Shown here: positions 4,678 to 50,723 of the stretch, in pieces
Layout: each line of letters begins with the position of its first letter
How positions within the stretch are numbered: position 1 is the stretch's first letter
DNA from: a virus
DNA length: 64,000 bases
IMG/VR virus record: IMGVR_UViG_3300038675_001020
Coordinates: 3,944 to 67,943 of that record
Reading direction: 5' to 3' (one strand)
Position numbers and translations under genes: made by a program
The notes under the pieces: model-generated
Told to the model about the DNA's origin: nothing
What the model saw: the letters and a program-made list of their open reading frames with translations, nothing else
Databases searched by the model: none

Positions 4678-7600
4678 GTGATGCGCTTGCGCGTTTTGCA
4701 TCTGGACATTGAAACCTACTCCTCTGCCCCACTCCCTAAGTGCGGAGTATATCGCTATTGCGACTCGTCGGACTTCGAGATCCTGCTGCTGTCCTACGCC
4801 TTTGACGATGGGCCGGTAATAACCGTAGACCTGGCCTGTGGTGAAACGCTGCCGGACGAATTCCTCAAAGCGCTGGAAGACCCGAACATCCTGAAAATCG
4901 CGCACAATGCCGCGTTTGAGCGCGCGTGCTTTTCCAATCTTATCGGTCATTGGCTCGATCCAGCGCAATGGCGCTGCACAATGGTCATGGCGTGGTATTC
5001 CACATTGCCCGGCAGGCTGGCCGATGTGGCGGTGGTGCTGAACGTGACGGAGAAGAAGATGGAGGAAGGCAAAGACCTGATCCGCTACTTCTCCGCTCCC
5101 TGCAAGCCGACCAGGACCAACGGCGGGCGCACGCGCAACCTGCCGCAGCACGCGCCGGAGAAGTGGGTAATGTACAAGAAATACAACGCGCAGGATGTGG
5201 AAACCGAGCGCGCGGTCTATCATGCGCTACTTAAGCATCCACTGCCTGAGCACGAATGGGAACTGTACGCGCTCGACCAGCGGATCAATGACCGGGGCGT
5301 GCGGGTGGATCGGCTGCTGGTCAAACAGGCGATGGCGGTCGATCTGGCTTTTAGCCGGCAGGCGTTCCAGCGGGCACAGGAGTTGACAGGGCTGGAAAAC
5401 CCCGGCAGCGTAAGCCAGCTCAAGGCGTGGCTAGCCGATATGGACATGCCCATGGAGAGCCTGTCCAAGCGCATCGTGCAGGAGAAGGCTGCTGAGGCGG
5501 AGGGCATCGTCAAAGAACTGCTGGAGCTGCGTTTGGAACTGAGCAAGACATCGATCAAGAAGTACGAGGCCATGGCAAGAACGGTTTGCAGGGACGGACG
5601 GGTACATGGGATGCTGCAGTTTGGCGGCGCGTCGCGCACATTCAGATGGGCCGGACGTCTGGTGCAATTGCAAAACGTGCCCCAGAATCATTTGCCCGAT
5701 CTGCGCCTCGCCAGAGATATCGTGAAGCGCAGCGACGAGGAACAGCTGGAATTGCTGTTCGGGTCTGTGCCGGGCACGCTCTCTGAGCTGATCCGCACAG
5801 CGTTCATCCCCAAAGATGGATGCCGTTTTATCGTGGCGGACTTCTCAGCCATTGAAGCGCGGGTGCTGGCATGGCTGGCCGGGGAGGAATGGGTGCTGGA
5901 TGAGTTCCGGGGCAATGGCAAAATCTACGAGGCGACAGCCAGCCGCATGTTCCACGTCCCGCAGGAGACCATCGTCAAGGGGCATCCAAATTACGAATAC
6001 CGGCAGAAGGGGAAGCAGGCGACTTTGAGCTGTATCGCAGAAGGACAGCTCGTCTTGACAGATCAGGGATTGGTGCCCATCGAGCAGATTCAGCTGCACC
6101 ACAAGGTGTGGGATGGAGAGAATTGGGTACCGCATGAAGGACTTGTGTACCGTGGAAGAAGGGAGGTCATTACCTATGAAGGACTCACAGCAACGGCAGA
6201 CCATCTCGTCTGGGTGAAAGGACAGACACCTCCAATTCCGTTCGAGCAGGCTGCCGCCAACGAACTGCACCTCGCAGGGTGCGGGCAGACAGTACAGCAT
6301 AATCCCAATGAGTTCAATCGGGGCGTAGCCAGAGTGTATGACCTACGAAATGCCGGACCACATCACCGTTTTACCGTATCGGGGCATCTCGTCCATAACT
6401 GCGGCTACGGCGGCGGAGTCGGCGCACTGAAAGCCATGGGAGCGAAAATGGCCGAGGAGGAAATGCAGCCACTGGTGGACGCATGGCGCGCGGCCAATCC
6501 GCACATCGTGCAGTTCTGGTATGCGCTTGGGAATGCCGCCTCGGAGGTGATTGAGAAACACAATAGCGTCCGAGTGGGCAAGGTGAAGGTGTACTGGCAG
6601 GATAATCGGCTGCTGATCCGCCTGCCCAGCGGACGCGATCTGTGTTACCTCTCTCCGCGCTTTGTGACCAATCGCTTTGGTAGCCGGGGCATTGGATATC
6701 TGGCAGCATCCGCCAATGGAAAGATGGAGATGCAGGAGACCTTTGGCGGCAAGATTGTCGAGAACTGTTTGGCTGAAGGAACGCTTGTCATAACCAATTT
6801 CGGTCTTGTGCCAATAGAGCATATTTCTGCTTCACATCTCGTTTGGGATGGTGAAGCTTTTGTTCACCACGGGGGTGTGCTTTCCAAAGGGGTACAGCCA
6901 ACGATCTGTGTTAATGGGATATGGATGACAACAGAACACAAAATCCTTACAGAGAAAGGAATGGCAGCTTGTGGGCAAAGCGAGGGACTTAACTGGGCAT
7001 CAGTACAGCTACCTGACGGTTTTGAAGAGGGAGGGAAGCAACAGACACGGCAAACCGACGTGGAGATGCAGATGCGTTTGCGGCAGAGAGATTGTGGTTC
7101 CGGGATACTATCTCAACAGAAAAGGCAGAAAATATCATCAGCGTTCGTGCGGATGCATGAAAAACAAGCTGATCAGCCAGGCACAGACAAAGCATGGCAT
7201 GAGCCACCATCCCGCATTTGCGGTGTGGCATTCTATGAAGCAGCGGTGCGAAGACCCACAGCATCGGGCGTACCAAAACTATGGGGGACGCGGAATCAAA
7301 GTGTGCGAAGAATGGCAGCGCAGCTTCGAAACGTTCTGGCACGACATGGGACCAACGTACAAGCAGGGTTTGGAACTGGATCGGATAGACAACGACAAGG
7401 GATATTGCGCAGAAAATTGTCGCTGGGTAGAACGCAAAATCAACGCCCGAAACCGCAGGGTAACGAGGTTGATCGACACACCCTATGGCAGAATGTCGGT
7501 GGCGGAGCTGTGCGAACTAACGGGCATTGGAGAAACGACGATTTTGTATCGATTGGATCACAAGTGGCCGACAGAATTTCTATGTGCAAAACCCGACTAC

Positions 7601-7911
7601 CGAAATGTGTATACGACATCAGGAATTGTGGTCCGAGGCACAGATTCGCAGTGTGGGCAAATGGACATGCACGAGTAGTAAGCAACTGTACCCAAGCCAT
7701 CGCCCGCGATCTGCTGGCGCACGCCATGCAGAATCTCGAAGTGGCGGGCTACCCCATCGTGTTCCACGTCCACGATGAAGCGGTCATGGAGGTACCCATC
7801 GGTCAGGGAAGCGTGGAGGAAGCCTGCCGCATCATGGCCATTCCGCCGGACTGGGCGCAGGACTTGCCGCTTCGGGCGGACGGCGAGGAGATGGAGTTCT
7901 ACCGGAAATAA
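4678..7911 (+). CDS. polA: Phage family A DNA polymerase precursor containing two inteins
   Basis: Exo motifs LDIETYS and AHNAAFER; motif A DFSAIEARVLAW; motif B RQKGKQATLS/CGYG split by intein 1; motif C FHVHDEAV. Confidence 0.95.
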   Translation: MMRLRVLHLDIETYSSAPLPKCGVYRYCDSSDFEILLLSYAFDDGPVITVDLACGETLPDEFLKALEDPNILKIAHNAAFERACFSNLIGHWLDPAQWRCTMVMAWYSTLPGRLADVAVVLNVTEKKMEEGKDLIRYFSAPCKPTRTNGGRTRNLPQHAPEKWVMYKKYNAQDVETERAVYHALLKHPLPEHEWELYALDQRINDRGVRVDRLLVKQAMAVDLAFSRQAFQRAQELTGLENPGSVSQLKAWLADMDMPMESLSKRIVQEKAAEAEGIVKELLELRLELSKTSIKKYEAMARTVCRDGRVHGMLQFGGASRTFRWAGRLVQLQNVPQNHLPDLRLARDIVKRSDEEQLELLFGSVPGTLSELIRTAFIPKDGCRFIVADFSAIEARVLAWLAGEEWVLDEFRGNGKIYEATASRMFHVPQETIVKGHPNYEYRQKGKQATLSCIAEGQLVLTDQGLVPIEQIQLHHKVWDGENWVPHEGLVYRGRREVITYEGLTATADHLVWVKGQTPPIPFEQAAANELHLAGCGQTVQHNPNEFNRGVARVYDLRNAGPHHRFTVSGHLVHNCGYGGGVGALKAMGAKMAEEEMQPLVDAWRAANPHIVQFWYALGNAASEVIEKHNSVRVGKVKVYWQDNRLLIRLPSGRDLCYLSPRFVTNRFGSRGIGYLAASANGKMEMQETFGGKIVENCLAEGTLVITNFGLVPIEHISASHLVWDGEAFVHHGGVLSKGVQPTICVNGIWMTTEHKILTEKGMAACGQSEGLNWASVQLPDGFEEGGKQQTRQTDVEMQMRLRQRDCGSGILSQQKRQKISSAFVRMHEKQADQPGTDKAWHEPPSRICGVAFYEAAVRRPTASGVPKLWGTRNQSVRRMAAQLRNVLARHGTNVQAGFGTGSDRQRQGILRRKLSLGRTQNQRPKPQGNEVDRHTLWQNVGGGAVRTNGHWRNDDFVSIGSQVADRISMCKTRLPKCVYDIRNCGPRHRFAVWANGHARVVSNCTQAIARDLLAHAMQNLEVAGYPIVFHVHDEAVMEVPIGQGSVEEACRIMAIPPDWAQDLPLRADGEEMEFYRK
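6031..6399 (+). mobile_element. Mini-intein 1 (123 aa) in polymerase motif B
   Basis: Starts CIAEGQLVLT, block B TADH, ends VYDL...HLVHN followed by extein Cys; removal restores QATLS-CGYGGG. Confidence 0.93.
6766..7686 (+). mobile_element. Intein 2 (307 aa) with out-of-frame endonuclease cargo
   Basis: Starts CLAEGTLVIT, block B TTEH, ends VYDIRNCGPRHRF...VVSN followed by Cys; removal restores GKIVEN-CTQAIARD. Confidence 0.92.
6971..7678 (+). CDS. HNH-type homing endonuclease nested in the +1 frame inside intein 2
   Basis: DLTG..Y..LTV..WRCRCVCG..SCGC, WHSMKQRC, YGGRGIKVCEEW, LDRIDNDKGYCAENCRW..NARN, C-terminal HTH-like segment; GTG start 10 nt after GAAAGGA. Confidence 0.9.
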   Translation: MGKARDLTGHQYSYLTVLKREGSNRHGKPTWRCRCVCGREIVVPGYYLNRKGRKYHQRSCGCMKNKLISQAQTKHGMSHHPAFAVWHSMKQRCEDPQHRAYQNYGGRGIKVCEEWQRSFETFWHDMGPTYKQGLELDRIDNDKGYCAENCRWVERKINARNRRVTRLIDTPYGRMSVAELCELTGIGETTILYRLDHKWPTEFLCAKPDYRNVYTTSGIVVRGTDSQCGQMDMHE

Positions 7912-18650: not shown

Positions 18651-18864
18651 TCAGGTTGCCTGCGACGGAAGGTCACCTGCCCGTGCTGCGCCCACGTTGC
18701 CGCCACGCGGCGCGTAACCACCGCCCTTCGACTGCGTGCCGCACCTCGATTTCAAAGCCCGACACGAGCCGGCGTGCGGCCACGTCGCGCAAAGCAAAGG
18801 GAGACGAGAAAAGCCGCCCGCTGGCGGCAATCTCGATTGCATAGGCGTTTTGGTTCACGGTATC

Positions 18865-19455
18865 TCACCGCATCCGCCAGGGCAGGTAGCTGGCGTTGCT
18901 GAACAGCAGCCCGCGGTCGTTCACGAACTCGCCAACCGTGGCGACATATCCGCCCCCGTCCATGATGGCGAACTTGGACTGCGCGATTTGGAAGATTTCG
19001 TCCAGCAGGCGCTGGTCGCGCAGGTCGGCGCGGCTGCGGATGAGGCGGGAGAGGTAGTCGGTGATGAATATGGCGGTGTCGCTGTAGCGCTCGTTGCTTG
19101 GATCACTAGTCAGGCGGATGACGCCGTTGTGTGCCACGCCGACGCGGCAGCTCAGGTCGAGCTGGCGCATACGCTCCGGCCTGGTGGACAGCGGAAACGG
19201 ATGCGTCATTTCAGGGCCTACACCCGCCTGCGTGCTGATTCGGAAGTGATACACCACGCTGTCCTGCGGGGTGAAGCACTCTGCGCGGATGGCACGCAGG
19301 TATTCGTCCAGCCGCATGAAGCCTTTGTGGATTTCGACGCGCCCGCCTCTGGCGACCATGTACCCCGCGCCGTGGGGATTGTTCAGGAACATGGCGCGGA
19401 TGGCAGCCTCGCCGGGCTGGCGGACGCCGGATTTGGATACGCAGATGATGCACAT
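18865..19455 (-). CDS. Class II (Ntn) glutamine amidotransferase-like protein
   Basis: N-terminal MCII, NPHGAG, HFRIST, HPF, AHNG, SDT. Confidence 0.85.
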   Translation of the reverse strand: MCIICVSKSGVRQPGEAAIRAMFLNNPHGAGYMVARGGRVEIHKGFMRLDEYLRAIRAECFTPQDSVVYHFRISTQAGVGPEMTHPFPLSTRPERMRQLDLSCRVGVAHNGVIRLTSDPSNERYSDTAIFITDYLSRLIRSRADLRDQRLLDEIFQIAQSKFAIMDGGGYVATVGEFVNDRGLLFSNASYLPWRMR

Positions 19456-19502
19456 GTGAAATTGCCTCCTTGCTGGATGTTCTGGTGTATTTGGAAGCGG
19501 TG

Positions 19503-19566
19503 CGGCTCCCGTGACGCTCCCAATTTGAGAGCGTTTCGGCCTGTGCCAAAGGCCATCCGGGAGCCG
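19503..19566 (-). pseudogene. Degenerate hammerhead unit E (CUGAN core missing)
   Basis: Minus: ggctcccg-GAT-ggcct/aggcc-GAAA-cgctctc/gggagcg-TC-a-cgggagcc; stems II and III retained. Confidence 0.7.
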
Positions 19567-19584
19567 GCCTTCGCTCCGTGCGGG

Positions 19585-20025
19585 TCAATCGTTGATGATG
19601 GAGGTGATTTCAAAGCGCTCGCTGAACGCCTCGGGCGAGAGGACGGCGTCGTCGCTGCCGTCGGGGCTGCCGTAGAACACGGCGACGCATCCGTCCTGTG
19701 TGCTGTTCGCCACGCCGGTCTTGCCGGTGGCTCGCTCGCGGATTTCTATCGTTTCGGCAATGGTCTCGGCGGCGATGAGCCGCTGGTATTCCGTTTCGGG
19801 CGCGGCGGCTTCCTCGCTGCTATATGCGTGGGTGAAGTCACGAACAATGTCGTAGACCATCTGCGAATTGCATTCGATGGGCGGCAAGTTGTGCTCCATT
19901 TCGTAGCGGCGCTGGTCGCGCAGCCAGTTTTCGGCGTCGGTCATGGACCATGCTTCGCGCTCACTGCCGTCCATCTCGTCGTACACCTGTAGGAGTAATT
20001 CCATGAGGGTATCGCTGGGGGTCAT
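19585..20025 (-). CDS. Acidic hypothetical protein
   Basis: AAGGAGG RBS; lies between hammerhead units D and E. Confidence 0.75.
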   Translation of the reverse strand: MTPSDTLMELLLQVYDEMDGSEREAWSMTDAENWLRDQRRYEMEHNLPPIECNSQMVYDIVRDFTHAYSSEEAAAPETEYQRLIAAETIAETIEIRERATGKTGVANSTQDGCVAVFYGSPDGSDDAVLSPEAFSERFEITSIIND

Positions 20026-20065
20026 TGTGTGTCCTCCTTCTTGCGGATTTGGAAGCTGTGTGGCT

Positions 20066-20125
20066 CCCGCGACGCTCCCGATTTGAGAGCGTTTCGGCCT
20101 GTGCCGGAGGCCATCGTCAGGCGGG
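20066..20125 (-). ncRNA. Type I hammerhead ribozyme D (intact)
   Basis: Minus: cccgc CTGACGA t ggcct-ccggcac-aggcc GAAA cgctctc-aaatc-gggagcg TC gcggg. Confidence 0.88.
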
Positions 20126-20335
20126 TGGATTGAGCAGTCCTTCAGGGTAGGCGCAATCCGTGCCCCGGTGGGCGGCGACCAGCGAGCGCGCGTATTTGCG
20201 CAGCTCAGGCATGGCGCGGCGGATGCGCGCTTCGCCGTCGAGTTTGGTCAAAAGGATGTGATTGAGGTAGTCGTACAGCCCGTCGTCGAACCAGTCGAGG
20301 ATGTCCATGAGGGTTTCGATGTTCATGTGCTTCAT
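20117..20335 (-). CDS. Small hypothetical protein
   Basis: GGGAGG RBS before ATG 20335; its TGA stop is the UGA of the ribozyme D core. Confidence 0.65.
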   Translation of the reverse strand: MKHMNIETLMDILDWFDDGLYDYLNHILLTKLDGEARIRRAMPELRKYARSLVAAHRGTDCAYPEGLLNPPA

Positions 20336-20378
20336 GCGCGTTCCTCCCTGCTCCATTTCAAAGCGCTTTCGCGTATGC

Positions 20379-20409
20379 TATTCATCACTCTTTCGGGGCG
20401 AAATAGCAA
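20379..20409 (-). promoter_or_regulatory. Accessory-gene promoter-like motif, copy 3
   Basis: Minus TTGCTA-N13-GAGTGATGAATA. Confidence 0.6.
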
Positions 20410-20472
20410 CCCGACCGATGCACCAGGGTTTCTGAAGACGGTCTTGTTCATATCCACCCGGTGGATGTTGAT

Positions 20473-20763
20473 TCAAAAGCTGTGCCCGTGGGCTCGGACA
20501 TATCGCAGATGCCGGCCAGGAATGCGAAAAAGGCGTGCGGCTTTGCCGAAGGGGTAGTCCTCGACCTCAATGGCGTACCAGCCAGGCTTGCAATTTGCAA
20601 GCTGTGCGGCCAGCTCTTTGAATGCCTTCAGGTCGACCTGTTCAGGGTGTGCGGGGTCGAATGGTGCGACATCCATACTGTCCCAGTAATCATCGTAGAT
20701 TCGAGCGAGTGTGCGCCCGTCCCGGCAGGAGCTCAGCTTGATTTCAAAGCGCACTTTATTCAC
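20473..20763 (-). CDS. Hypothetical protein
   Basis: AAGGAGG RBS before GTG 20763 (MNKVRFEIK...). Confidence 0.7.
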   Translation of the reverse strand: MNKVRFEIKLSSCRDGRTLARIYDDYWDSMDVAPFDPAHPEQVDLKAFKELAAQLANCKPGWYAIEVEDYPFGKAARLFRIPGRHLRYVRAHGHSF

Positions 20764-20803
20764 AGTATGTACCTCCTTGCTGTATTCAGGAACTATGCGG
20801 CTT

Positions 20804-20861
20804 CCCGCGACCGGCTGTGCGCCGGTTTTGGCTGGCGGCCAGCCAGCCATCGTCAGGCGGG
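20804..20861 (-). ncRNA. Type I hammerhead unit C with G12A core substitution (predicted inactive)
   Basis: Minus: cccgc CTGACGA t ggctggc-tggcc-gccagcc AAAA ccggc-gcaca-gccgg TC gcggg. Confidence 0.8.
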
Positions 20862-20863
20862 GA

Positions 20864-21424
20864 CTATGCATGAAGGATGAAGGTCTTGCCCTTGGCAGTA
20901 ATTTCGTAGAACATCCTGCCGCTTTCCGGCGTGTGCTTCTCCAGCCGTGTGATGTCTTCGACCCGGCAGGATTTCATGCGGGGCTGCCGCCGTATCCAGC
21001 GAAGGGCTGCGGATTTGTAAGCTGCGCCCAGCTCCGCCGGAGCTGTGTGTCCGCGCCTGCGCCAGCGCTCCAGCCTGACGGCAGCCATCCGAGCGCCTTC
21101 TTCACGCGTGGTGTAGTAGCTGCCGCTGATTTGGTCCCACTCGATTTCAAAGAGTGTGTCGAGACGTTCGTTCCAGATGGTGTGTGTGCGGGAGAGGTCC
21201 TCGTTGCAGCGGCCGACCCGCAGGCGGACGATGCTGCCATAGCTGCCGCCATAGTTGCCCTCCCGCTCCAGAAGAACCCGGAGGATTTCGTTGCCGTCGG
21301 AAAGGTCGATGTGTGCCAGCTCGCCCTGCGAGCCGCTCATGGTCTCGTAGTGGATTTGGTAGCCCTTGGCCAGCAGCTCGCTGACCTTCTGCGTGTACGC
21401 GCGGCGGATGTCGTTGTTGGTCAT
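20864..21424 (-). CDS. Hypothetical protein
   Basis: AAGGAGG RBS; TMSGSQGE..HIDL motif. Confidence 0.75.
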   Translation of the reverse strand: MTNNDIRRAYTQKVSELLAKGYQIHYETMSGSQGELAHIDLSDGNEILRVLLEREGNYGGSYGSIVRLRVGRCNEDLSRTHTIWNERLDTLFEIEWDQISGSYYTTREEGARMAAVRLERWRRRGHTAPAELGAAYKSAALRWIRRQPRMKSCRVEDITRLEKHTPESGRMFYEITAKGKTFILHA

Positions 21425-21463
21425 GAAATGTACCTCCTTACTCGATTCGAAAGTGTGCGGCTT

Positions 21464-21523
21464 CCCGCGACGCTCCCGGCTGGGGAGCGTTTCGGCCTGT
21501 GCCGGAGGCCATCGTCAGGCGGG
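21464..21523 (-). ncRNA. Type I hammerhead ribozyme B (intact)
   Basis: Minus: cccgc CTGACGA t ggcct-ccggcac-aggcc GAAA cgctccc-cagcc-gggagcg TC gcggg. Confidence 0.88.
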
Positions 21524-21727
21524 TCATTGATTCAAAAGGATGCACATCTTGCTGGAAAGGGCGCTGAGTTGGGTGGCAAGGCTTTGCGCCTCGTCGGTGG
21601 CAAGCCCCATTGCGACCATTTCGTTCGTCAAATTTCCAAGCTTGGCCCGGTACTCCGTAAGTGCACTGTGCAGGACGGACAATTCCGTCTGGGTGAGTGT
21701 GAGTTGGATTTTCTGTGTGTCTTTCAT
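21524..21727 (-). CDS. Small helical hypothetical protein (67 aa)
   Basis: AAGGAGG RBS; flanked by ribozymes A and B. Confidence 0.7.
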   Translation of the reverse strand: MKDTQKIQLTLTQTELSVLHSALTEYRAKLGNLTNEMVAMGLATDEAQSLATQLSALSSKMCILLNQ

Positions 21728-21764
21728 GAGAATTTCCTCCTTGCTTGATTTGAAAGTGCGGCTT

Positions 21765-21821
21765 CCCGCGACCGGCGCGTGCCGGTTTCGGCTGGCGGCC
21801 AGCCAGCCATCATCAGGCGGG
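21765..21821 (-). ncRNA. Type I hammerhead ribozyme A (intact)
   Basis: Minus: cccgc CTGATGA t ggctggc-tggcc-gccagcc GAAA ccggc-acgc-gccgg TC gcggg. Confidence 0.88.
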
Positions 21822-21838
21822 CGGATTTGGGAGCTGTA

Positions 21839-22723
21839 TCAGGATGCCTGCCGCCAGGCGGCGTTGCCGGGCAGGCGCTTGGTGAGGTGTTCCCGCGCGG
21901 TTTCAAATTCCCCGCCGATGAAGCCCAGGCGCAGGAGCCAGCAGCGGAAGGTGTATTTGGGATTGTCGGTAATGGGGCGCGTCGGGCTGGCGGCCTTGGT
22001 GGTGAGCGCCTGATGGGAAATTGCGAGGCAAAGCTGGATGTAGGCTTTGACTTCGCCCGCGTGGAGTGTGCCGTTGAAGGCGCGGAACTCAATGGTGTGC
22101 GCGGGGCGTTCGGTGGAAAAGGCGGCGTGCAGATTCAGGAGGTGGTAGCGGCTGTGGTCGTAGTGGCTGGACGCGCAGTCGCGCCAGTCAGATGTGGTGG
22201 GATTATTGGTTTTGTACCAAAGCTGTGCCAGAGCGTCCATGGTGGCGGGTTTGCGGCGGTTGAGCTCGGCGAGGAACGCCGGGTCAACGGGCTTGCACCA
22301 CTGCCTGCGGCGGCTCGGGCTTATGCCCAGCGCCTGTGTCAGCAGGTCTTCCTTGGCGTTGACAATATTGGTTAGACGGCGCAGGCTTTGCGGGGTGTGT
22401 TCGCCGAGGCCGACGTGGATGTGAATGCCGCAGGACGCGTCGGCCTTTGCGCCCGCCTGCCGCAGGGCGCGAACCACTTCCTGCACCATGGGGATGTCGT
22501 CCCAGCGGCACACCGGGCTTACGACTTCGGCGCTTGGGTCGGTGACCGAACCGTCGCGTTCGACCACCCACTTGCGCCCGTCGGGCATGGGAATGTGCCA
22601 GTCGCCAAGGTGGCGACCGACGTAGCGGGCGGTCGTGCCGAATAGCTCGGCAATGACCTGCGCTGTGCGTTCGCGACCGAGACCGGTGGTTTCAATCTCG
22701 ACCCCAAAAGTCTGGTTTTTCAT
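21839..22723 (-). CDS. Amidoligase-2 (COOH-NH2 ligase) family protein
   Basis: FGVEIE, DGSV, EVVSP, SCGIHIHVG, RYHLLNL, TIEFRAFNGTLHAG. Confidence 0.88.
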   Translation of the reverse strand: MKNQTFGVEIETTGLGRERTAQVIAELFGTTARYVGRHLGDWHIPMPDGRKWVVERDGSVTDPSAEVVSPVCRWDDIPMVQEVVRALRQAGAKADASCGIHIHVGLGEHTPQSLRRLTNIVNAKEDLLTQALGISPSRRRQWCKPVDPAFLAELNRRKPATMDALAQLWYKTNNPTTSDWRDCASSHYDHSRYHLLNLHAAFSTERPAHTIEFRAFNGTLHAGEVKAYIQLCLAISHQALTTKAASPTRPITDNPKYTFRCWLLRLGFIGGEFETAREHLTKRLPGNAAWRQAS

Positions 22724-22781
22724 GGGCTGTGCTCCTTTCGTTTTTGCGCGGGGCTTTTTGCCCGCCCCGCGCGGCGTGATG

Positions 22782-22812
22782 TATTAATCACTCGGCGGGG
22801 CACAAAAAGCAA
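22782..22812 (-). promoter_or_regulatory. Accessory-gene promoter-like motif, copy 4 (amidoligase/ribozyme operon)
   Basis: Minus TTGCTT-N13-GAGTGATTAATA. Confidence 0.65.
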
Positions 22813-22899
22813 GTCGATGAAAAGCACAAGGTTTTCGGGCAGAAACAGCGCTTATGAGACAAATAAGGCGGGCCGGGAAACGCGCTTCCTTATAAGCGA

Positions 22900-23500
22900 A
22901 AACGGCCCCGGCGCGCCCGGCGGATTTCCCTGCGGGCGGAAACCCTACACAAGCCGGAAGCTTTGATGCGGCTTTTCGCCGCCGGCCCGCCCCACGCCGC
23001 CGTCGCGCCCGCCCCGCGCGTGCCCGGCCCCGCCCGTCGCGCCCGCCCCGGCCCCGCGCCCGGCGGCCCGTTTTCCCGCGCCCTGCGCCGCCCACCCCGC
23101 GAAATTTGGCCCCGCCCGCGCGTCGTCCGCCCCGCCCGCGCCCGGCGGCCCGTTTTCCCCGCGCCCCGCCGCCTCGCCCGCCACGCGGCCCGTGTGCGCC
23201 CGACGCGGGCTTTGGCGCGCCGCCCCGCCGCCGCGCGCCCGGCTGTGCCTCCCGGCGGCCCGGCCCCGCGCCCGTGTGCCCGGCGCGCCCCGCCGCCCGC
23301 CCGGCCTTGCGCCGCCCGCTCCGCGCCGCGCCTCGGGCGCCCCCCCTGTGCCCGCGCCGCCCCCCCGGCCCGCCGCCGCGGCTGTGCCCGCGCGCCCTCC
23401 GCCCCGACTCCCCAGGGGGGGGCGAATCTTTGCGAACGGTTCCTAAGAGACCGCCGCGCTCTCACGCATAATACTCCGCGTAATTCGGGGCCCGGGGGTC
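22900..23500. other. Extremely GC-rich, A-depleted non-coding tract; candidate packaging (cos) region at its right end
   Basis: Only 7 A in 22981-23400; repeat gcccggcggcccgttttccc near 23058 and 23140; G-run plus GACCGCCGCGC at 23411-23460; lies at the divergence point before the packaging genes. Confidence 0.55.
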
Positions 23501-23557
23501 ACCGAAAGAAAACGAGTGCCATGTGCAAATTTGCTTTGTTTGGAGGAGTGTGTTTTC

Positions 23558-24541
23558 ATGCCTAATATTGAAAAGAAGCTCATCATTGGCCAGAAATATG
23601 GTCACCTCACAGCAATTTGTGAAGCGCCTCGAGGGAAACATGGTGAGCGCCGGTATATGTGCCGCTGTGATTGTGGGCATGTTGGAAACTATATTGTTTA
23701 TCCAATACTAAAAGGAGTTACGAAGAATTGCAGAAAATGTGTTCCTCATTCAGGCGGCATGCCGCCACCGGATCTGGCGGGGAAAACCCTTAATGGGTGG
23801 AAAGTCATTGCAAAAGAAAAAGTGGTTAGGAAAGAAAGCGGCAATTTGTACTTTTTTCGCTGTCAGTGCTCTCGCTGCGGAAACGAATCTGTGTTGACTG
23901 CAGGGCAGATATATAACAGCAAGTCAAGCCGATGCCATAAATGTGGGCCGATGTATCATTTTCATATCGAGGGTGGATCGGCATACGGCGCCTTGTCGGA
24001 TGGTGCTGAATTCATCATTGATACTGAGGACATTGCAAAGGTCGATCAGCATTATTGGTTTCGTGAAAGAAAGGATAAATATATAGTATCCCGCGATGGA
24101 AATCGCATGCATCGCCTGGTTCTCGGTATCACAGATCCAAGTATCATGATTGATCATATCAATCGGAATCGGTCAGATAATCGAAAGGCGAATCTTCGCG
24201 TTGCCACTACAGCCCAAAATTGTTTCAATCATAGCAAATTATCTACAAACAGGACTGGATATATCGGCGTGTATTTTAGCCAAGTAAGCCAACGCTATGA
24301 GGTAAAGGTTGGATACAATCAAAAGAGAATATATCTGGGTTCGTCGAAAGATGATTTGATATATCTCGCACAAATGTACAATATAGCCGCAAGTTATCTA
24401 TTTGATGAATATGTTGGCGAATTGAACGATGTACCAGATCCTTCTCCAGAACTGGTCAAGCGTGTAATTCAAAAATGCGAAAAATATAAAAAAGCATCTG
24501 TCCAGGCGGCAGGTGCTTTTTCAATGGAGGGCGCCGTATGA
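23558..24541 (+). CDS. Free-standing HNH/AP2 homing endonuclease
   Basis: Two CxCxxCG repeats, MHRLVL, IDHINRNRSDNRKANLR, AP2-like NRTGYIGV...IYLG; low GC; GGAGGAG RBS. Confidence 0.88.
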   Translation: MPNIEKKLIIGQKYGHLTAICEAPRGKHGERRYMCRCDCGHVGNYIVYPILKGVTKNCRKCVPHSGGMPPPDLAGKTLNGWKVIAKEKVVRKESGNLYFFRCQCSRCGNESVLTAGQIYNSKSSRCHKCGPMYHFHIEGGSAYGALSDGAEFIIDTEDIAKVDQHYWFRERKDKYIVSRDGNRMHRLVLGITDPSIMIDHINRNRSDNRKANLRVATTAQNCFNHSKLSTNRTGYIGVYFSQVSQRYEVKVGYNQKRIYLGSSKDDLIYLAQMYNIAASYLFDEYVGELNDVPDPSPELVKRVIQKCEKYKKASVQAAGAFSMEGAV

Positions 24542-25788
24542 ATACTGACATGATTATCAGAAAACTGCCGATTTCTTCGATGAAACCCGCCAGATACAAT
24601 CCCAGAAAAGATCTGAAGCCGGGTGATCCTGCCTATGAAAAGATCCGGCGCAGCCTGCACGACTTCGGCTATGTCGATCCTGTCATCTGGAATGAGGTCA
24701 CGGGCAACATCGTCGGTGGGCATCAGCGCTACAAGGTGCTGGTCAGCGAGGGCGCAACGGAGATCGACTGCGTAGTTGTACATATCGAAAACCCGCAGGA
24801 TGAAAAGGCGCTCAACATTGCCTTGAACAAGGCGGTCGGCGAATGGGAGCCGGTGGCGCTGGCTGACCTGCTGGCTGACCTGCAATCCTCGGGCTATGAC
24901 CTCGGCGCGACCGGCTTCGACGCCGCCGAGGTGGACGAGCTGTTCTCCAAGGTGCACGATAAGGACGTCAAGGACGATGACTGCGACATCGACCCGGAGG
25001 AGATCGTGCCTTTCGTGGAGCCGGGTGATATCTGGACGCTGGGCAGGCACCGCATGGTCTGCGGCGACGCTACCAACGCGGGCGATGTCGCTCTGCTCAT
25101 GGACGGCCTCAAGGCCAACCTCATCGTCACCGACCCGCCCTACAACGTTGCCTACCAGAGCGCTGACGGCAAGTCCATCCAGAACGACAGCATGGCGGAT
25201 GGCAAGTTCTATGAATTCCTGCTGGCGGCCTTCCGCAACATGGCTGCACATCTAGCCGAAGGCGGCAGCGCCTACATCTTCCACGCGGATACCGAGGGGC
25301 TCAACTTCCGCCGCGCGTTCAAGGAGGCGGGCTTCCACATCAGCGGCGTGTGCATCTGGGTGAAGAACAGCCTCGTGCTGGGGCGCTCGCCCTACCAGTG
25401 GCAGCATGAGCCGGTGTTGTTCGGCTGGCTGCCCAACGGCAAGCACAAGTGGTTTGCCGACCGGAAGCAGTCCACCATATGGAACTTCGACAAGCCGAAA
25501 AGGTCCGCCCAGCACCCGACGATGAAGCCCATCCCGCTGCTGGCGTATCCCATCAAGAACAGCTCCGCGCCCAACGGCGTGGTCATGGATCTGTTCGGCG
25601 GCAGCGGCTCCACGCTCATCGCCTGCGAACAGACCGACCGCATCTGCCGGACGATGGAGCTTGACCCCAAATATGCCAGCGTCATCGTACAGCGGTTCAT
25701 CGAACTGACTGGCAGCGATGAAGAAGTGTGCGTGGAGCGGGCCGGCGTGGTCAAAAAGTACAGTCAACTTGACCTGAGAGGCAAGTAA
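24538..25788 (+). CDS. ParB-fused N6-adenine/N4-cytosine DNA methyltransferase
   Basis: YNPRK, IVGGHQR, TDPPYN, HPTMKP, DLFGGSGST. Confidence 0.92.
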   Translation: MNTDMIIRKLPISSMKPARYNPRKDLKPGDPAYEKIRRSLHDFGYVDPVIWNEVTGNIVGGHQRYKVLVSEGATEIDCVVVHIENPQDEKALNIALNKAVGEWEPVALADLLADLQSSGYDLGATGFDAAEVDELFSKVHDKDVKDDDCDIDPEEIVPFVEPGDIWTLGRHRMVCGDATNAGDVALLMDGLKANLIVTDPPYNVAYQSADGKSIQNDSMADGKFYEFLLAAFRNMAAHLAEGGSAYIFHADTEGLNFRRAFKEAGFHISGVCIWVKNSLVLGRSPYQWQHEPVLFGWLPNGKHKWFADRKQSTIWNFDKPKRSAQHPTMKPIPLLAYPIKNSSAPNGVVMDLFGGSGSTLIACEQTDRICRTMELDPKYASVIVQRFIELTGSDEEVCVERAGVVKKYSQLDLRGK

Positions 25789-29615: not shown

Positions 29616-31317
29616 CGGCATCGGGGGCTTCCCTCTTGCGGGGAAGTATGCGGGCATACGCCCCGTGTGGGCGTCGGAGATCGAGCCGTTCCCGATACGG
29701 GTGACAGAAAAGCGGCTGCCGGAGATGAAGCACTACGGAGATATTCATGGCCTGCACGGCGCGAAACTTGAACCCGTGGACGTGATCACCTTTGGCTCGC
29801 CCTGTCAGGACGTTTCCATAGCAGGCAAGCGGGAAGGATTGTCCGGCGGACGATCCGGCCTGTTTTTCGAGGCAATCCGCGTCATCCGGGAAATGAGGGA
29901 GGCAACGAATGGAGAATATCCCAAATGGGCTGTGTGGGAGAACGTGCCGGGCGCGCTGTCCTCTCACAATGGGGAGGACTTCCGGCAAGTCCTCGAAAGC
30001 CTCATCCGCGTCCAGGAACCCGAAGCAGATGTTCCTCTGCCTGCGGGAGGACGCTGGCTGCCGGCCGGGGAGATCATGGGCGACGGTTATTCTCTCGCCT
30101 GGCGCATCCTCGACGCCGCGCAGGGTTGGGGCGTCGCACAAAGACGGAAACGTGTATTTGTTGTCCTCGATCTTGCAGGCGGACGCGCCGGAGAAGTACT
30201 GTTTGAGTCCGAAGGCTTGTCAGGGTATACTCCGCCGGGCGCAAAAGCGCGGCAAGGAGCTGCCGGAGGTGCTGAGGATAGCGCTGGAGCGGCAGGCCGC
30301 GCGGAACGAAGCGCAGGAGGCTTCTGTACAGGTCAGAGCGGCGGAAGCCGAAGCGACGGGTACGGTGAAGAGCGCACGCCCACAATACGCGGAGGCAAAC
30401 CGCCCGGTGTTGCCATAGAATTCAACCCCACAGCCAGCCGCATCGGCTTGCGCAAAGACGGCGTATGCCAGACACTCTGCTCACGCATGGGAACGGGCGG
30501 AAACAATGTTCCCCTGACCCTGAAGATCCGCGCAGGCTGTGATGGCGGCGGTAAAGGCGCGCTTATTCAGCACGACCTGCCGGCGACGCTGGGCTGCCAC
30601 AACGACCAGACGCTGTTCGCGCCGAAAGCCTTCGGCATAGGCTCCGCGGAAAGTAAAGGACTGCTTTCCCCAAACCCGAAGAGCGGGTTTTACGAAGCGG
30701 CGACCAGCCGGACGCTCGACCGGAGCGGCGGCAACGCCTGCTGCAATCAGGGCGGCATGGTGGTGGTATCGCCCGCTTACAGCATCCGCCCGATGGTCAA
30801 TACCCAGACGCAGCAGGAACAAACGCCCTCGCTCATGGCGCGCGACAGCAAGGATCCGCTGCTGGTCAGCCTGCCATCCTACTGCCTTGACCGCGCCTGT
30901 TTCACATCCGGCGAGAACGCTCAGTACCGCCTGAGCGTGCGGGCAGAAGTTGCCGCCACGCTGGTCGCCGAGGGGCCGGGCGCGATCTCCGCGCCGCCGG
31001 AAGAATACCTCGTGCGCCGGCTGACGCCGCTGGAGTGCTGCCGGCTGCAAGGATTCCCCGACGGCTGGACGGAGCATCTGGAGACAGAGGAACCCGGTGA
31101 GCAGGAGATCGCCAGGTGGGTTGGGGTGTTTGAGGATTGGTACCGCGCACAGGGAAAGACGGCGCGGGCCAGCCTGGGGAAAATTGCAAAATGGCTGAAG
31201 AACCCGCGCACGGATTCAGCGGAGTACAAGGCATACGGCAACAGCGTGGCTGTGCCGTGTGTCTTTTTTGTGCTTGCCGGCATTGCGTGGGCGGAGAATC
31301 GAGGTGATGAGACTTGA
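29572..31317 (+). CDS. C5 cytosine DNA methyltransferase
   Basis: Motif I LFDGIGG, IV GSPCQD, VI ENV, VIII QRRKRVF, IX RRLTPLECCRLQGFP, X YGNSV. Confidence 0.93.
   Translation: MKKTAKPLTLGSLFDGIGGFPLAGKYAGIRPVWASEIEPFPIRVTEKRLPEMKHYGDIHGLHGAKLEPVDVITFGSPCQDVSIAGKREGLSGGRSGLFFEAIRVIREMREATNGEYPKWAVWENVPGALSSHNGEDFRQVLESLIRVQEPEADVPLPAGGRWLPAGEIMGDGYSLAWRILDAAQGWGVAQRRKRVFVVLDLAGGRAGEVLFESEGLSGYTPPGAKARQGAAGGAEDSAGAAGRAERSAGGFCTGQSGGSRSDGYGEERTPTIRGGKPPGVAIEFNPTASRIGLRKDGVCQTLCSRMGTGGNNVPLTLKIRAGCDGGGKGALIQHDLPATLGCHNDQTLFAPKAFGIGSAESKGLLSPNPKSGFYEAATSRTLDRSGGNACCNQGGMVVVSPAYSIRPMVNTQTQQEQTPSLMARDSKDPLLVSLPSYCLDRACFTSGENAQYRLSVRAEVAATLVAEGPGAISAPPEEYLVRRLTPLECCRLQGFPDGWTEHLETEEPGEQEIARWVGVFEDWYRAQGKTARASLGKIAKWLKNPRTDSAEYKAYGNSVAVPCVFFVLAGIAWAENRGDET
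29909..30418 (+). CDS. Nested +1-frame ORF in the C5 methyltransferase (putative second subunit)
   Basis: GGAGG 6 nt before ATG; C-terminus LSSILQADAPEKYCLSPKACQGILRRAQKRGKELP resembles the L.DILE....EKY.LS segment of C5 MTases. Confidence 0.7.
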   Translation: MENIPNGLCGRTCRARCPLTMGRTSGKSSKASSASRNPKQMFLCLREDAGCRPGRSWATVILSPGASSTPRRVGASHKDGNVYLLSSILQADAPEKYCLSPKACQGILRRAQKRGKELPEVLRIALERQAARNEAQEASVQVRAAEAEATGTVKSARPQYAEANRPVLP

Positions 31318-50700: not shown

Positions 50701-50723
50701 TGTCGCTCATCTATACAGGATAA
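47706..50723 (+). CDS. Tail hub/spike (Tal-like) protein with SH3b insertion and repeat stalk
   Basis: E.LNGEWEL.LEHP, QPFRIY, KNL..I, VVTRI.P.G; SH3b LRLRSGTGTNY..W; IA.AQITTANI repeats. Confidence 0.85.
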   Translation: MPMLCIYPADCTDFSGNGLGVVSPQTCTVTETLNGEWELTLEHPIDEYGKWTRLAEGNILRAPVPAAMTPQVNLVIQQHQTATHEVLIYKVSTSRDPLRLRSGTGTNYKILSKYKKGTEVIVLNKTTSSWYEVTCPDGKHGYMASEYLIYVRTETQTTQTNVGFRNETIEARQLRDQPFRIYRVVPELTKVTVCARHIFYDLLDNMVKSLKPSPSAVGASVVQSLASACLSEHGFTFYSDLTSTAEEVEWENVNPVEAMLGEDGLVEKYKAELARDWFDVFLVRRVGVDSGVQIREKKNLLGISYDVDATDVVTRIMPTGEDADGNILYLPELYIDSPNIGAYIHPKWVHLPVSEAKEVLPDENSTGEKEARTRDQCYVEMRKAAQAEFDRGCDLPTVTLKVDFVNCADTEEYRQYGFLQNIFLGDSVRVVAPRVGVEVSMRMTQYTYDCLTKKYTALTLGTAADTLEGSLISARQLASGSITGMKLAMGSVGSGQLQSGSVGSLQVRMAAIATAHIQDACITRAKIAEATVGELNAEAITAITARIEELAAGHVVTDELYASLATIALAQITTANIDTANISWADIGGLAAEIANIAVAQITTANINQASIDWANIANLNAQIAEIALAQITSANIEAAHIDWANIAELNAAIARIAVAQLTTANINNAEIDWASIGELQAAIAELTHASIGTADIDWAQIKDLTTGTAIIEKGVNGKLYVADLAVTEANMASLSVGELLIRGEDGCFYAISIAPDGSVTTEKKMVSNADVADASLAGSKLLEQTITARELNVASIFADEALIGAIKAANIDVSSLFAAEAFISQLNAVDISGNESLRLTVEAARDEALDAAGETLAQIAITADEIRSEVRRDYASADAVEQLQTTVSTLAEQTETDFTWAVTKINEVIEDAAASQALTEEQLALIRTYMSFGEDGLTIGKSGNPLTFRVVNDRLAFYMNNTEVAYLSDNKLYVTQAEILAKLQIGKFAFEPQSNGNLSLIYTG

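Follow-up and report, generated by a model that had tools for sequence, protein, structure and literature searches.

A minus-strand array of hammerhead ribozyme repeats at the gene junctions of an amidoligase-headed accessory operon in a gut phage

Five hammerhead units, designated A to E, occupy five of the six junctions that lead from an amidoligase gene (21839-22723) to a 196-aa gene (18865-19455) on the minus strand of a gut Caudoviricetes phage, all within a span of 2.3 kb. The phage is represented by a provirus record of 67,943 bases, and coordinates throughout are those of the window, the stretch of 64,000 nucleotides of this record that was analysed. An earlier note, made from the sequence alone, had described units in five of the six junctions, three of them exact and two damaged, and this layout is borne out, with every unit on the minus strand. 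The array is real, but it is a kind of feature that was already described for prophages in 2011. Its elements, from the first gene to the end of the last, are as follows.

21839-22723, minus strand: first gene, encoding a 294-aa amidoligase (PF12224, E 5e-61; phrog_2443)
21765-21821, minus strand: unit A, full core; helices I, II and III of 5, 7 and 6 bp; extra U after A9; 78.8 bits; predicted cut 21770/21769 (descriptor scan)
21728-21769, minus strand: leader after cut A, with the 3′ strand of helix I, GCC, a pyrimidine tract, AAAUC and AAGGAGG in that order
21524-21727, minus strand: 67-aa gene flanked by units A and B; assigned to no family; no DNA relative in 73 related loci
21464-21523, minus strand: unit B, full core; 70.9 bits; predicted cut 21469/21468
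21425-21468, minus strand: leader B, laid out like leader A
20864-21424, minus strand: 186-aa gene flanked by units B and C; phrog_38037, of unknown function
20804-20861, minus strand: unit C, three helices kept; A for G12 (window position 20829); 69.8 bits
20764-20808, minus strand: leader C, laid out like leader A
20473-20763, minus strand: 96-aa gene after unit C; GTG start behind AAGGAGG
20336-20472, minus strand: junction after the 96-aa gene, the sole one without a hammerhead
20117-20335, minus strand: 72-aa gene before unit D; family of 12 in relatives, in varying places
20066-20125, minus strand: unit D, full core; 70.2 bits; predicted cut 20071/20070
20026-20070, minus strand: leader D, laid out like leader A
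19585-20025, minus strand: 146-aa gene flanked by units D and E; without relatives among the 73 loci
19508-19584, minus strand: unit E, remnant that retains helices II and III and GAAA; 41.5 bits
19456-19512, minus strand: leader E, laid out like leader A
18865-19455, minus strand: 196-aa last gene; starts MCIIC; class II amidotransferase-like motifs by eye only
18813-18828, minus strand: terminator-like hairpin and T run past the last gene, of a hit class not enriched over shuffles

The assignment of these repeats to the type I hammerheads is supported by their core sequence, their topology, the covariation of their helices and a conserved, predicted pseudoknot between loop II and the 3′ tail. 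The 5′ core strand (C3 U4 G5 A6 N7 G8 A9) is present in units A, B, C and D and lost in E, where about 22 other bases replace the CUGA stretch and A rather than G is the first base in the 3′ strand of helix I. The 3′ core strand (G12 A13 A14) is found in units A, B, D and E, and the core of unit C departs from the consensus at position 12 alone, which is an A. All five units carry GUC, that is, the A15.1-U16.1 pair followed by a non-G residue at H17. G10.1-C11.1, A15.1-U16.1 and C17 occur together in units A, B and D. When the whole window was scanned on both strands with a descriptor, A, B and D were the only complete hammerheads, and their cuts fall at the sites that had been predicted earlier. 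Because G12 acts as the general base in hammerhead catalysis, as described in PMC11300833, unit C is probably inactive. Helix I is open and helices II and III are closed by loops in each unit, which is the type I topology; the body of the ribozyme would thus remain on the upstream cleavage product.

One feature departs from the textbook consensus, namely an additional U between A9 and G10.1 of helix II, which is present in all five units. Among the canonical units of the wider family, U occupies this position in 41 of 53, in eight a 1-nt bulge comes after a G-C pair, and three have no extra base. Precedents exist elsewhere: the plus-strand hammerhead of chrysanthemum chlorotic mottle viroid is active with an extra nucleotide after A9, a U there being 3-4 times faster than an A (PMC3705267), and an extra nucleotide after A9 is conserved in the hammerheads of Penelope elements (PMC4209133). 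These hammerheads share with the phage units the same unpaired position between A9 and G10.1 within an otherwise canonical core, but they differ in host (a viroid and a eukaryotic retroelement) and in their helix contacts, and in the phage family the U is the rule.

The earlier proposal that the repeats match the type I hammerhead consensus is supported by core, topology, covariation and the predicted pseudoknot, and by no Rfam model. The search with hammerhead models that the note had put forward as a check gave no Rfam match, even at E <= 10. No ribozyme family was reported in the whole window at the gathering score, in window positions 18500-23000 at E <= 10, or in relatives (five scanned at E <= 10, ten at the gathering score); the scans of window and relatives yielded just two tRNAs and chance-level matches. 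Relatives that have no extra U are missed by Rfam as well, and in the junctions without a hammerhead Rfam detected no twister, pistol or hatchet. We read this failure as a limit of the Rfam models and not as an argument against the fold; membership in the family consequently stands on a purpose-built descriptor and a purpose-built model, R1. Annotation pipelines, for their part, report nothing at these junctions, and the entire family falls into a blind spot. Across the whole 67,943-base record, R1 gives five matches at E <= 1, units A to E and no others, and units C and E, which lay outside its training alignment, still score 69.8 and 41.5 bits. Two further R1 matches were rejected: a partial one at window positions 15-1 is not a unit and vanished once the full record was scanned, and one at 30613-30662 (11.5 bits, E 0.8) is at chance level.

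Covariation was assessed over 44 distinct units. In these, 92.4% of cells are paired, compared with 30.9-45.3% when the partners are slid, although the rows had been pre-selected by a scanner that needs at least three pairs per helix, which inflates the percentage paired at the inner pairs. Twelve of the 18 pairs change on both sides, against a shuffle mean of 6.7, and none of 500 shuffles reaches 12. The covarying helices are II and III, whereas helix I is almost invariant and hence poorly tested. Within the window, the two stem variants that had been distinguished by eye reappear as two repeat families, one comprising A and C and the other B, D and E. A perfect core together with three helices is found in 53 of 71 full-length distinct units (a set that includes the window's own 5), and the remaining 18 depart from the canonical pattern. 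Of the 53 canonical units, 52 have C at H17 and one has A.

The putative loop II pseudoknot would provide a tertiary contact. The GCC that can pair with the GGC of loop II sits 1-2 nt past helix I, and the pairing is available in almost all units. Over 65 units, the best helix between loop II and the tail has a mean of 4.14 bp, compared with 3.15 +/- 0.09 for shuffled tails, and none of 300 shuffles attained the observed mean. Compensating changes occur as GGU/ACC in two units of locus L039 and as a shifted GCGG/CCGC in L062, while the central GGC/GCC scarcely varies across units and is hence poorly tested. A hammerhead in which a pseudoknot replaces helix II was crystallised in 2024, and its structure assigns the general base to G12 and the general acid to G8 (PMC11300833). 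That hammerhead shares its catalytic core with the phage units but differs from them in architecture, since the phage units keep helix II as a regular hairpin, with a loop that is predicted to pair with the 3′ tail.

The units hold a fixed position relative to the surrounding reading frames. Unit B begins immediately past the 67-aa gene, whose stop codon is at 21526-21524, and, as previously noticed, the UGA of the CUGA core in unit D is itself the stop codon (20119-20117) of the 72-aa gene. Among 78 distinct unit contexts, 5 of them the window's own, the core UGA serves as the upstream stop in 17, and a further 13 have the upstream stop within 0-4 nt of the start of helix I, on its 5′ side. 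In this set the majority of cuts fall 40-65 nt ahead of the next start codon. For the three complete units in the window, the predicted cuts were expected about 40-45 nt before the next start, upstream of an AAGGAGG, and the distances found are 42, 44 and 45 nt, with AAGGAGG downstream of each cut. The GCGG-GAAG-CCGC hairpin suggested for the new 5′ ends of A and B is indeed the minimum-energy fold there. Compared with shuffles, the 5′ hairpin is modestly favoured (mean z = -1.34). All 65 of the 65 products have nucleotides 1-4 paired, yet so do 91% of shuffles, since the start is GC-rich, which makes this a weak test. Across 71 units, the mean unpaired probability of the ribosome-binding site is 0.53 in the product and 0.42 in the ribozyme-folded precursor, so that any freeing of this site by cleavage is predicted to be a small effect.

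On balance, it seems probable that the RNA of this operon is cut into single-gene mRNAs and that the conserved ribozyme-plus-leader linker also marks the sites at which cassettes are exchanged. From the sequence, fold, covariation, strand, position and distribution of the units we infer cleavage, the chemistry of the RNA ends and effects on stability and translation in the following form. A single transcript would begin ahead of the amidoligase gene and end with the hairpin near 18813. While it is being made, units A, B and D would fold, each with a helix I of 5 bp and with helices II and III as hairpins, loop II would pair with GCC, and the RNA would be cut after C17. The upstream piece would then carry its own stop codon and the folded ribozyme and end in a 2′,3′-cyclic phosphate, and the downstream piece would begin with a 5′-OH and a short GC hairpin, followed by a 40-45-nt leader with a strong ribosome-binding site. 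The outcome would be one- or two-gene mRNAs whose stability and translation are independent of their neighbours, much as with a ribozyme insulator. Units C, in which G12 has changed to A, and E, which has lost its core, would no longer cut, so that one RNA would carry the 186-aa, 96-aa and 72-aa genes together and another the 146-aa and 196-aa genes. Given the damage to units C and E, and the deviation of 18 among the 71 full-length distinct units, cutting at all junctions does not appear to be required. Self-processing into 5′-OH cistrons, as the note had envisaged, would be a natural consequence of such an array, and by analogy it fits the in-vitro cleavage of other prophage arrays (PMC3088659).

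A more elaborate version, tentative and on present evidence somewhat doubtful, would view the linker as a "gene socket" of gut phages, composed of a stop codon at or in the core, the hammerhead, the 5′ hairpin and the leader with its ribosome-binding site. Such a socket would supply each accessory gene with an insulated mRNA, couple the cut to upstream translation and act as a joint for gene trade; the coupling is suggested because a terminating ribosome would cover helix I and the core.

A probable exchange of genes at the linkers is supported by comparison with relatives. Gene content between the units, which the note had proposed to compare, is variable while the linkers are kept: the order of genes from the amidoligase to the last gene changes in nearly every relative. 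Blastn blocks shared with the 73 loci consist of single genes, and their limits fall at gene ends or inside the ribozyme/leader linkers; for three small genes of the window, these loci contain no DNA relative whatsoever. In other metagenomes there is a form without the 186-aa gene, in which 21475 is joined to 20811 and unit B runs directly into unit C; it occurs in contigs from three runs, of which two are filed as RNA and one is probably DNA. Several contigs cease to resemble the window precisely at 21523, where unit B has its 5′ edge. The cassette-shuffling alternative raised in the note thereby gains comparative support, both from the single-gene blocks that end at linkers and from the B/C-joined form. 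The contigs were placed at 88% likeness and represent mixed relatives, and the joints may belong to separate lineages rather than to recombinants. Contig breaks in four runs (three filed as RNA, one probably DNA) fall at repeat edges, such as 21514/21521, and not at the predicted cut sites, and contigs of this kind cannot show the ends, strand or level of an RNA. In sequence terms, the linker of about 110 bp is a conserved joint between otherwise unrelated small genes, and recombination there probably swaps cassettes; the shuffling and self-processing readings are compatible with each other.

This same evidence is the strength of the rival view that the role at the DNA level is the main one, the repeats being recombination joints for inserting, deleting and reshuffling accessory genes and RNA cleavage a side property. 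Varying gene order between like linkers, the bounded blastn blocks, the 21475-20811 joint, the loss of likeness at 21523 and the sharing of stem variants by units of one genome (A/C and B/D/E) all speak for this view. Nevertheless, a plain joint has no need of a catalytic core, yet the core is kept while the helices covary, and a role confined to DNA does not demand that every unit lie on the coding strand; with the mixed origin of the 88%-likeness contigs also weighing against it, we consider this view unlikely.

The distribution of the family bears on a second rival, that the units are decaying selfish or relic repeats of no more use to the phage. At E <= 0.01, R1 finds 85 units in 39 of the 73 related phage loci, and all 85 are on the coding strand, the one that carries the genes next to them. 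A further 75 loci add 108 units, including three six-unit arrays on a single strand. Christensenellales and Faecalibacterium are the assignments given to relatives. The family extends widely through phage and bacterial contigs in arrays of up to six, and a looser core pattern is matched in bacteria of several phyla. The two broken units in the window and the 18 deviating members of the 71 speak for decay, but in 53 of 71 the core is perfect and all three helices are retained, with changes that compensate one another, strand and stop/start position are kept over hundreds of units, and the family is widespread in phages and bacteria, all of which renders the relic view quite improbable. Still less credible is a third possibility, that paired active units free gene-sized RNAs, such as the 301-nt A-B piece, which are then ligated into circles, a route for which hammerhead product ends are suited, whether by self-ligation or by RtcB-type ligation. 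No sequence feature brings the ends of a piece together, the B/C joint, which is present in one run of probable DNA as well, deletes a gene rather than circularising it, and in comparable prophage arrays spliced or circular products were sought and none found (PMC3088659).

Returning to self-processing as the favoured reading, its closest precedents are the triple arrays described by Perreault et al. in 2011 in prophages of Clostridium scindens, Azorhizobium caulinodans and Agrobacterium tumefaciens, all three of which cleaved when fragments of about 2 kb were transcribed in vitro (PMC3088659). As in those arrays, several hammerheads on one strand here flank single genes or short blocks of variable gene content, a pseudoknot would form the contact between helices I and II, and some copies have changed cores; there, too, the proposed role was the conversion of long phage transcripts into gene-length mRNAs (PMC3088659). 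Unlike them, the present array packs five units into 2.3 kb of an accessory operon headed by an amidoligase, and has a conserved extra U after A9 and a conserved leader, the comparison being with the text of PMC3088659. In the library searched, no paper combines hammerhead and amidoligase, nor, from 2012 on, any related work on self-cleaving prophage hammerheads in polycistronic RNA. Fifteen years after hammerheads were discovered in phage operons, the family described here could serve as a test bed for their role there, as it offers hundreds of units in gut phages, natural and putatively dead copies (G12 to A, core deletion) beside intact ones in the same operon, a fixed stop/start geometry, and close relatives with and without a given unit.

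Should the linker prove to be an insulator of genes, the ribozyme insulators of synthetic biology would have a counterpart in nature, and the linker would be a source of parts functional in Clostridia. Among engineered ribozymes, RiboJ carries an added hairpin. In E. coli it raises transcript about 2-fold and protein 2- to 10-fold (PMC6206723). The phage units resemble RiboJ in placing a ribozyme ahead of a ribosome-binding site, where cleavage would strip the upstream context and leave a short structured leader. They differ in that RiboJ is engineered and follows a promoter, whereas the phage units are natural and lie between cistrons, and their effect on expression is putative.

The proteins of the operon have few database matches. 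Those of 67, 96, 72, 146 and 196 aa have no match in Pfam, PHROG-function, NCBIfam or PDB-sequence searches, and phrog_38037 is the sole match of the 186-aa protein in Pfam, PHROG, NCBIfam and PDB-sequence. The label "glutamine amidotransferase", previously given to the 196-aa protein, finds no match in any of these searches and goes back to motifs recognised by eye. The promoter motif that had been placed in the sixth junction (20336-20472) was likewise not recovered by a consensus scan, and this junction folds no better than shuffles (z = 0.21). Promoter-like and terminator-like matches in 18300-24600 are overall not above shuffles. The hairpin at 18813-18828, to judge from the sequence, likely marks the end of the operon.

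The provirus record that is the source of the window comprises 67,943 bases, most of which the window covers, and is rated complete by CheckV. Among named phages, the closest to it come from the human gut and are classified under Ca. Heliusvirales, with Christensenellales as the listed host; phages of Faecalibacterium are related more distantly. The window has a G+C content of about 60%, and genes for phage replication, packaging, heads and tails lie on its plus strand. One opposite-strand island, running from 22723 to about 18813, is an operon with the following elements:

First gene, minus strand: amidoligase (PF12224, E 5e-61)
Five small genes between the amidoligase and the 196-aa gene, minus strand: 67, 186, 96, 72 and 146 aa
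Last gene, minus strand: 196 aa
About 18813, minus strand: hairpin with a T run at the likely operon end

In the minus-strand reading, one copy of a repeat sits in five of this operon's six junctions. From its 5′ end, the repeat consists of a 5-bp helix I (CCCGC/GCGGG), CUGAYGA, one extra U and a helix II hairpin of 5–7 bp, followed by GAAA, a helix III hairpin of 6–8 bp closed by A-U, a C, and the 3′ strand of helix I. Scanned over the full 64 kb on both strands, a descriptor of the hammerhead layout that tolerates at most one extra base after A9 returned three matches only (A, B and D), each with the extra base. The five units are:

21821–21765, minus strand: unit A, descriptor match
21523–21464, minus strand: unit B, descriptor match
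20861–20804, minus strand: unit C, failing the descriptor solely through an A at position 12 (window 20829)
20125–20066, minus strand: unit D, descriptor match
19584–19508, minus strand: unit E, with CUGAC replaced by about 22 unrelated bases and the 3′ strand of helix I beginning with A

These results agree with the three exact and two damaged units counted in an earlier note on this DNA, and a repeat finder returns the same two stem variants that the note distinguished, as groups D7 (A and C) and D3 (B, D and E). The hammerhead uses G12 as its general base (PMC11300833), so unit C, with A12, is very probably inactive; unit E, judged from its sequence, is certainly so.

A search with hammerhead models, which the earlier note had named as a check, came back empty: Rfam gave no ribozyme match in the window at the gathering score and, at E ≤ 10, no match in 18500–23000 or in five relatives, some with units that lack the extra U. 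The defining features of the hammerhead were therefore tested directly, using 73 comparison loci (70 IMG/VR loci fetched via the amidoligase protein and three GenBank phage loci). Descriptor matches from these loci, together with A, B and D, gave an alignment of 44 distinct unit sequences, in which 92.4% of cells are paired, compared with 30.9–45.3% when partners are slid by 1–3 columns; this percentage, unlike the count of two-sided changes, is partly built in, because the scanner that chose the rows required at least three pairs per helix. Two-sided changes occur in 12 of the 18 pairs (shuffle mean 6.7; 12 reached in 0 of 500 shuffles), and the covariation score is 0.309 versus 0.099. Nearly all of the covariation lies in helices II and III, helix I being nearly constant (C-G to U-A in 3 and 1 rows). 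A covariance model built from this alignment, R1, has no match in the 67,943-base record beyond the five units, which include C (69.8 bits) and E (41.5 bits), both outside its training set. The five-unit feature is real, and its match to the type I hammerhead consensus, to which Rfam is silent, is upheld by core and topology, by covariation in helices II and III and by the R1 scores.

At E ≤ 0.01, R1 yields 85 matches in 39 of the 73 related loci, all 85 on the same strand as the genes around them; the 26 loci in which amidoligase identity is 48% or lower have no unit by R1. Together with the window's five, these matches reduce to 72 distinct units, 71 of them full-length. A canonical core with three helices is present in 53 of the 71, and the deviations in the other 18, some of which fail solely on the rigidity of the classifier, include U4 to C, G5 to A, G12 to A and lost cores. 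After A9, the canonical units carry an extra U (41), an extra G (one), a G-C pair and then a 1-nt bulge (8), or neither (3). The plus hammerhead of chrysanthemum chlorotic mottle viroid has an extra nucleotide at the same place, and U acts 3–4 times faster there than the natural A (PMC3705267); in Penelope-element hammerheads such a nucleotide is conserved (PMC4209133). The extra U is thus no argument against activity. Three loci (L027, L031 and L040), with an amidoligase 58–63% identical, have similar small genes downstream of it and neither a unit (R1, E ≤ 0.01) nor an Rfam ribozyme there, and offer natural ribozyme-free versions of the operon for comparison.

Nearly all units have GGC in loop II and GCC in the tail 1–2 nt 3′ of helix I, which the earlier note had proposed to pair as a pseudoknot. 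Over 65 parsed distinct units, the best helix between loop II and the tail averages 4.14 bp, versus 3.15 ± 0.09 bp with shuffled tails (4.14 reached in 0 of 300 shuffles). On either side of its centre, the pairing covaries (UGGCU with AGCCG or AGCCA), and compensating pairs occur as GGU/ACC in two units of one related locus (L039) and as a shifted GCGG/CCGC in one unit of another (L062). Because the centre of the pairing is invariant across units, the pseudoknot is considered likely rather than proven; pseudoknots of this general kind have been reported in all three hammerhead types (PMC3088659).

The distances from the upstream stop codon to the start of units A to E are 17, 0, 2, −9 and 0 nt, respectively (23 nt for E if counted from the R1 model start). 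In unit D, on the minus-strand reading, the UGA of the core doubles as the stop codon of the upstream gene, and the predicted cuts of A, B and D lie 42, 44 and 45 nt upstream of the next start codon; both had been noted beforehand, the latter as about 40–45 nt. Among 78 distinct unit contexts, the window's five included, the stop codon lies within the core in 17 and 0–4 nt upstream of helix I in 13 more, and the distance from cut to start is mostly 40–65 nt. The leader behind the cut is conserved too: one or two A residues and GCC follow the 3′ strand of helix I, and a short spacer separates them from a pyrimidine tract, after which come AAAUC and finally AAGGAGG. Given the type I topology, the folded ribozyme would remain at the 3′ end of the upstream piece, and the downstream mRNA is predicted to keep only five ribozyme bases.

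Cyclic phosphate and 5′-OH ends result generally from the cleavage chemistry of the hammerhead class. Cleavage here would leave upstream pieces with a compactly folded 3′ end that bears a cyclic phosphate and downstream pieces starting with a 5′-OH, ends that may slow exonucleases and 5′-end-dependent decay. In minimum-energy folds of the 3′ products, the first bases lie in a GCGG-GAAG-CCGC hairpin in A and B, as anticipated, and also in C, and GGGAGC is paired with GCUUCC in D and E; a 5′-terminal hairpin forms in 65 of 65 products and also in 91% of shuffled sequences in which the first five bases are left in place, with an energy z-score of only −1.34. Release of the ribosome-binding site from the pyrimidine tract by cleavage is not relied on, the effect being small (over 71 units, the site has a mean unpaired probability of 0.38 in the free precursor, of 0.42 in the precursor with the ribozyme folded and of 0.53 in the product). 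Published precedent for the mechanism is stronger than these folding tests: triple prophage arrays were cleaved at all sites during in-vitro transcription, one prophage array was also cleaved in E. coli (PMC3088659), and the synthetic insulator RiboJ raises both the transcript and the protein level of a downstream gene (PMC6206723). Production of circular RNAs from the array has low odds; Perreault et al. found no spliced or circular products (PMC3088659).

The genes from the amidoligase to the last gene are arranged differently in nearly all of the relatives (73 loci): small-gene families of 72, 70, 69, 101, 95 and ~190–230 aa occur in shifting order, the last gene belongs to a 196-aa or a ~147-aa family, and units separate blocks of one to three genes. 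When the window operon is compared with these loci by blastn, the blocks are single genes. The amidoligase block stops between the stop codon and the next ribosome-binding site, those of the 186-, 72- and 196-aa genes start or stop in the linkers (the ~110 bp of ribozyme and leader between neighbouring small genes), and blastn finds no DNA relative in the 73 loci for the 67-, 96- and 146-aa genes. Contigs from three runs on other gut samples join 21475 to 20811, fusing unit B to unit C without the 186-aa gene, and in several contigs likeness ends exactly at 21523, the 5′ edge of unit B. Because one of the three runs is probably DNA, the joint is read as a genomic variant rather than as RNA splicing; the joints and breaks at 20811/21475 and 21523 are strain-level cassette differences at ribozyme linkers. 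Since blastn blocks and contig joints and breaks fall there, gene content, by these sequence comparisons, changes at the linkers. To this extent the cassette-shuffling reading of the earlier note has comparative support; the contigs, matched at 88% likeness, do not tell recombination at the repeats from descent.

An exact pattern for the extra-U form matched more than 114 IMG/VR stretches among the matches listed, and in 75 of these loci R1 finds 108 units, on one strand per locus throughout. A looser pattern matched more than 120 genome stretches, among them Clostridia assemblies, which hold as many as six exact matches, and cyanobacteria, Paenibacillus and others, which hold one apiece. Six-unit arrays were found in three matched loci:

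L098, 202–3675: six units on one strand
L125, 682–3345: six units on one strand
L133, 8733–12056: six units on one strand

The family being widespread and six-unit arrays known, an array of five is not exceptional. Two further loci (L211 and L212) also hold six-unit one-strand arrays, and the arrays in phage contigs and Clostridia assemblies span 3–6 kb.

As in the window operon, the genes between hammerheads in the prophage arrays of Perreault et al. are not constant, and long phage transcripts were proposed to be cut to gene-length mRNAs (PMC3088659). That 2011 report already covers in outline the observation in the earlier note and both its interpretations, self-processing into 5′-OH cistrons or cassette shuffling (PMC3088659). 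The papers searched show no hammerhead linked to an amidoligase-headed operon (none has both words), and no mention of a fixed leader, of a core that contains the stop codon or of the blindness of Rfam to this unit family. The family provides a test bed for what phage hammerheads are for.

Faecalibacterium phage FP_Brigit has one intact unit among small genes, near lysis genes (L003 3007–3061; record 52973–53034), and, as a cultured, named phage, is a possible experimental system.

Several other features were observed in the window. A second, distant amidoligase-like gene (16637–17677, plus strand; phrog_2443, E 5.8e-26; no Pfam match) converges on the hammerhead operon. Directly downstream of the operon's terminator-like hairpin is a 55-nt direct repeat (18500–18554 and 18596–18650; 95% alike, 96 nt apart), for which Rfam has no match. 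Between the leftward operon start and the rightward ParB/methyltransferase and terminase genes lies a highly G+C-rich tract (23015–23403) with five copies of a ~46-nt repeat and no convincing gene. Four tandem 90-nt (30-aa) repeats, 68–72% alike, occur at 49404–49763 within a 1005-aa ORF (47706–50723) that probably encodes a tail fibre or similar protein. In the DNA polymerase ORF (4678–7911, plus strand), three separate segments match polymerase families and an endonuclease-family match (phrog_93, residues 718–759) lies between them, a pattern compatible with intein or homing-endonuclease insertions.
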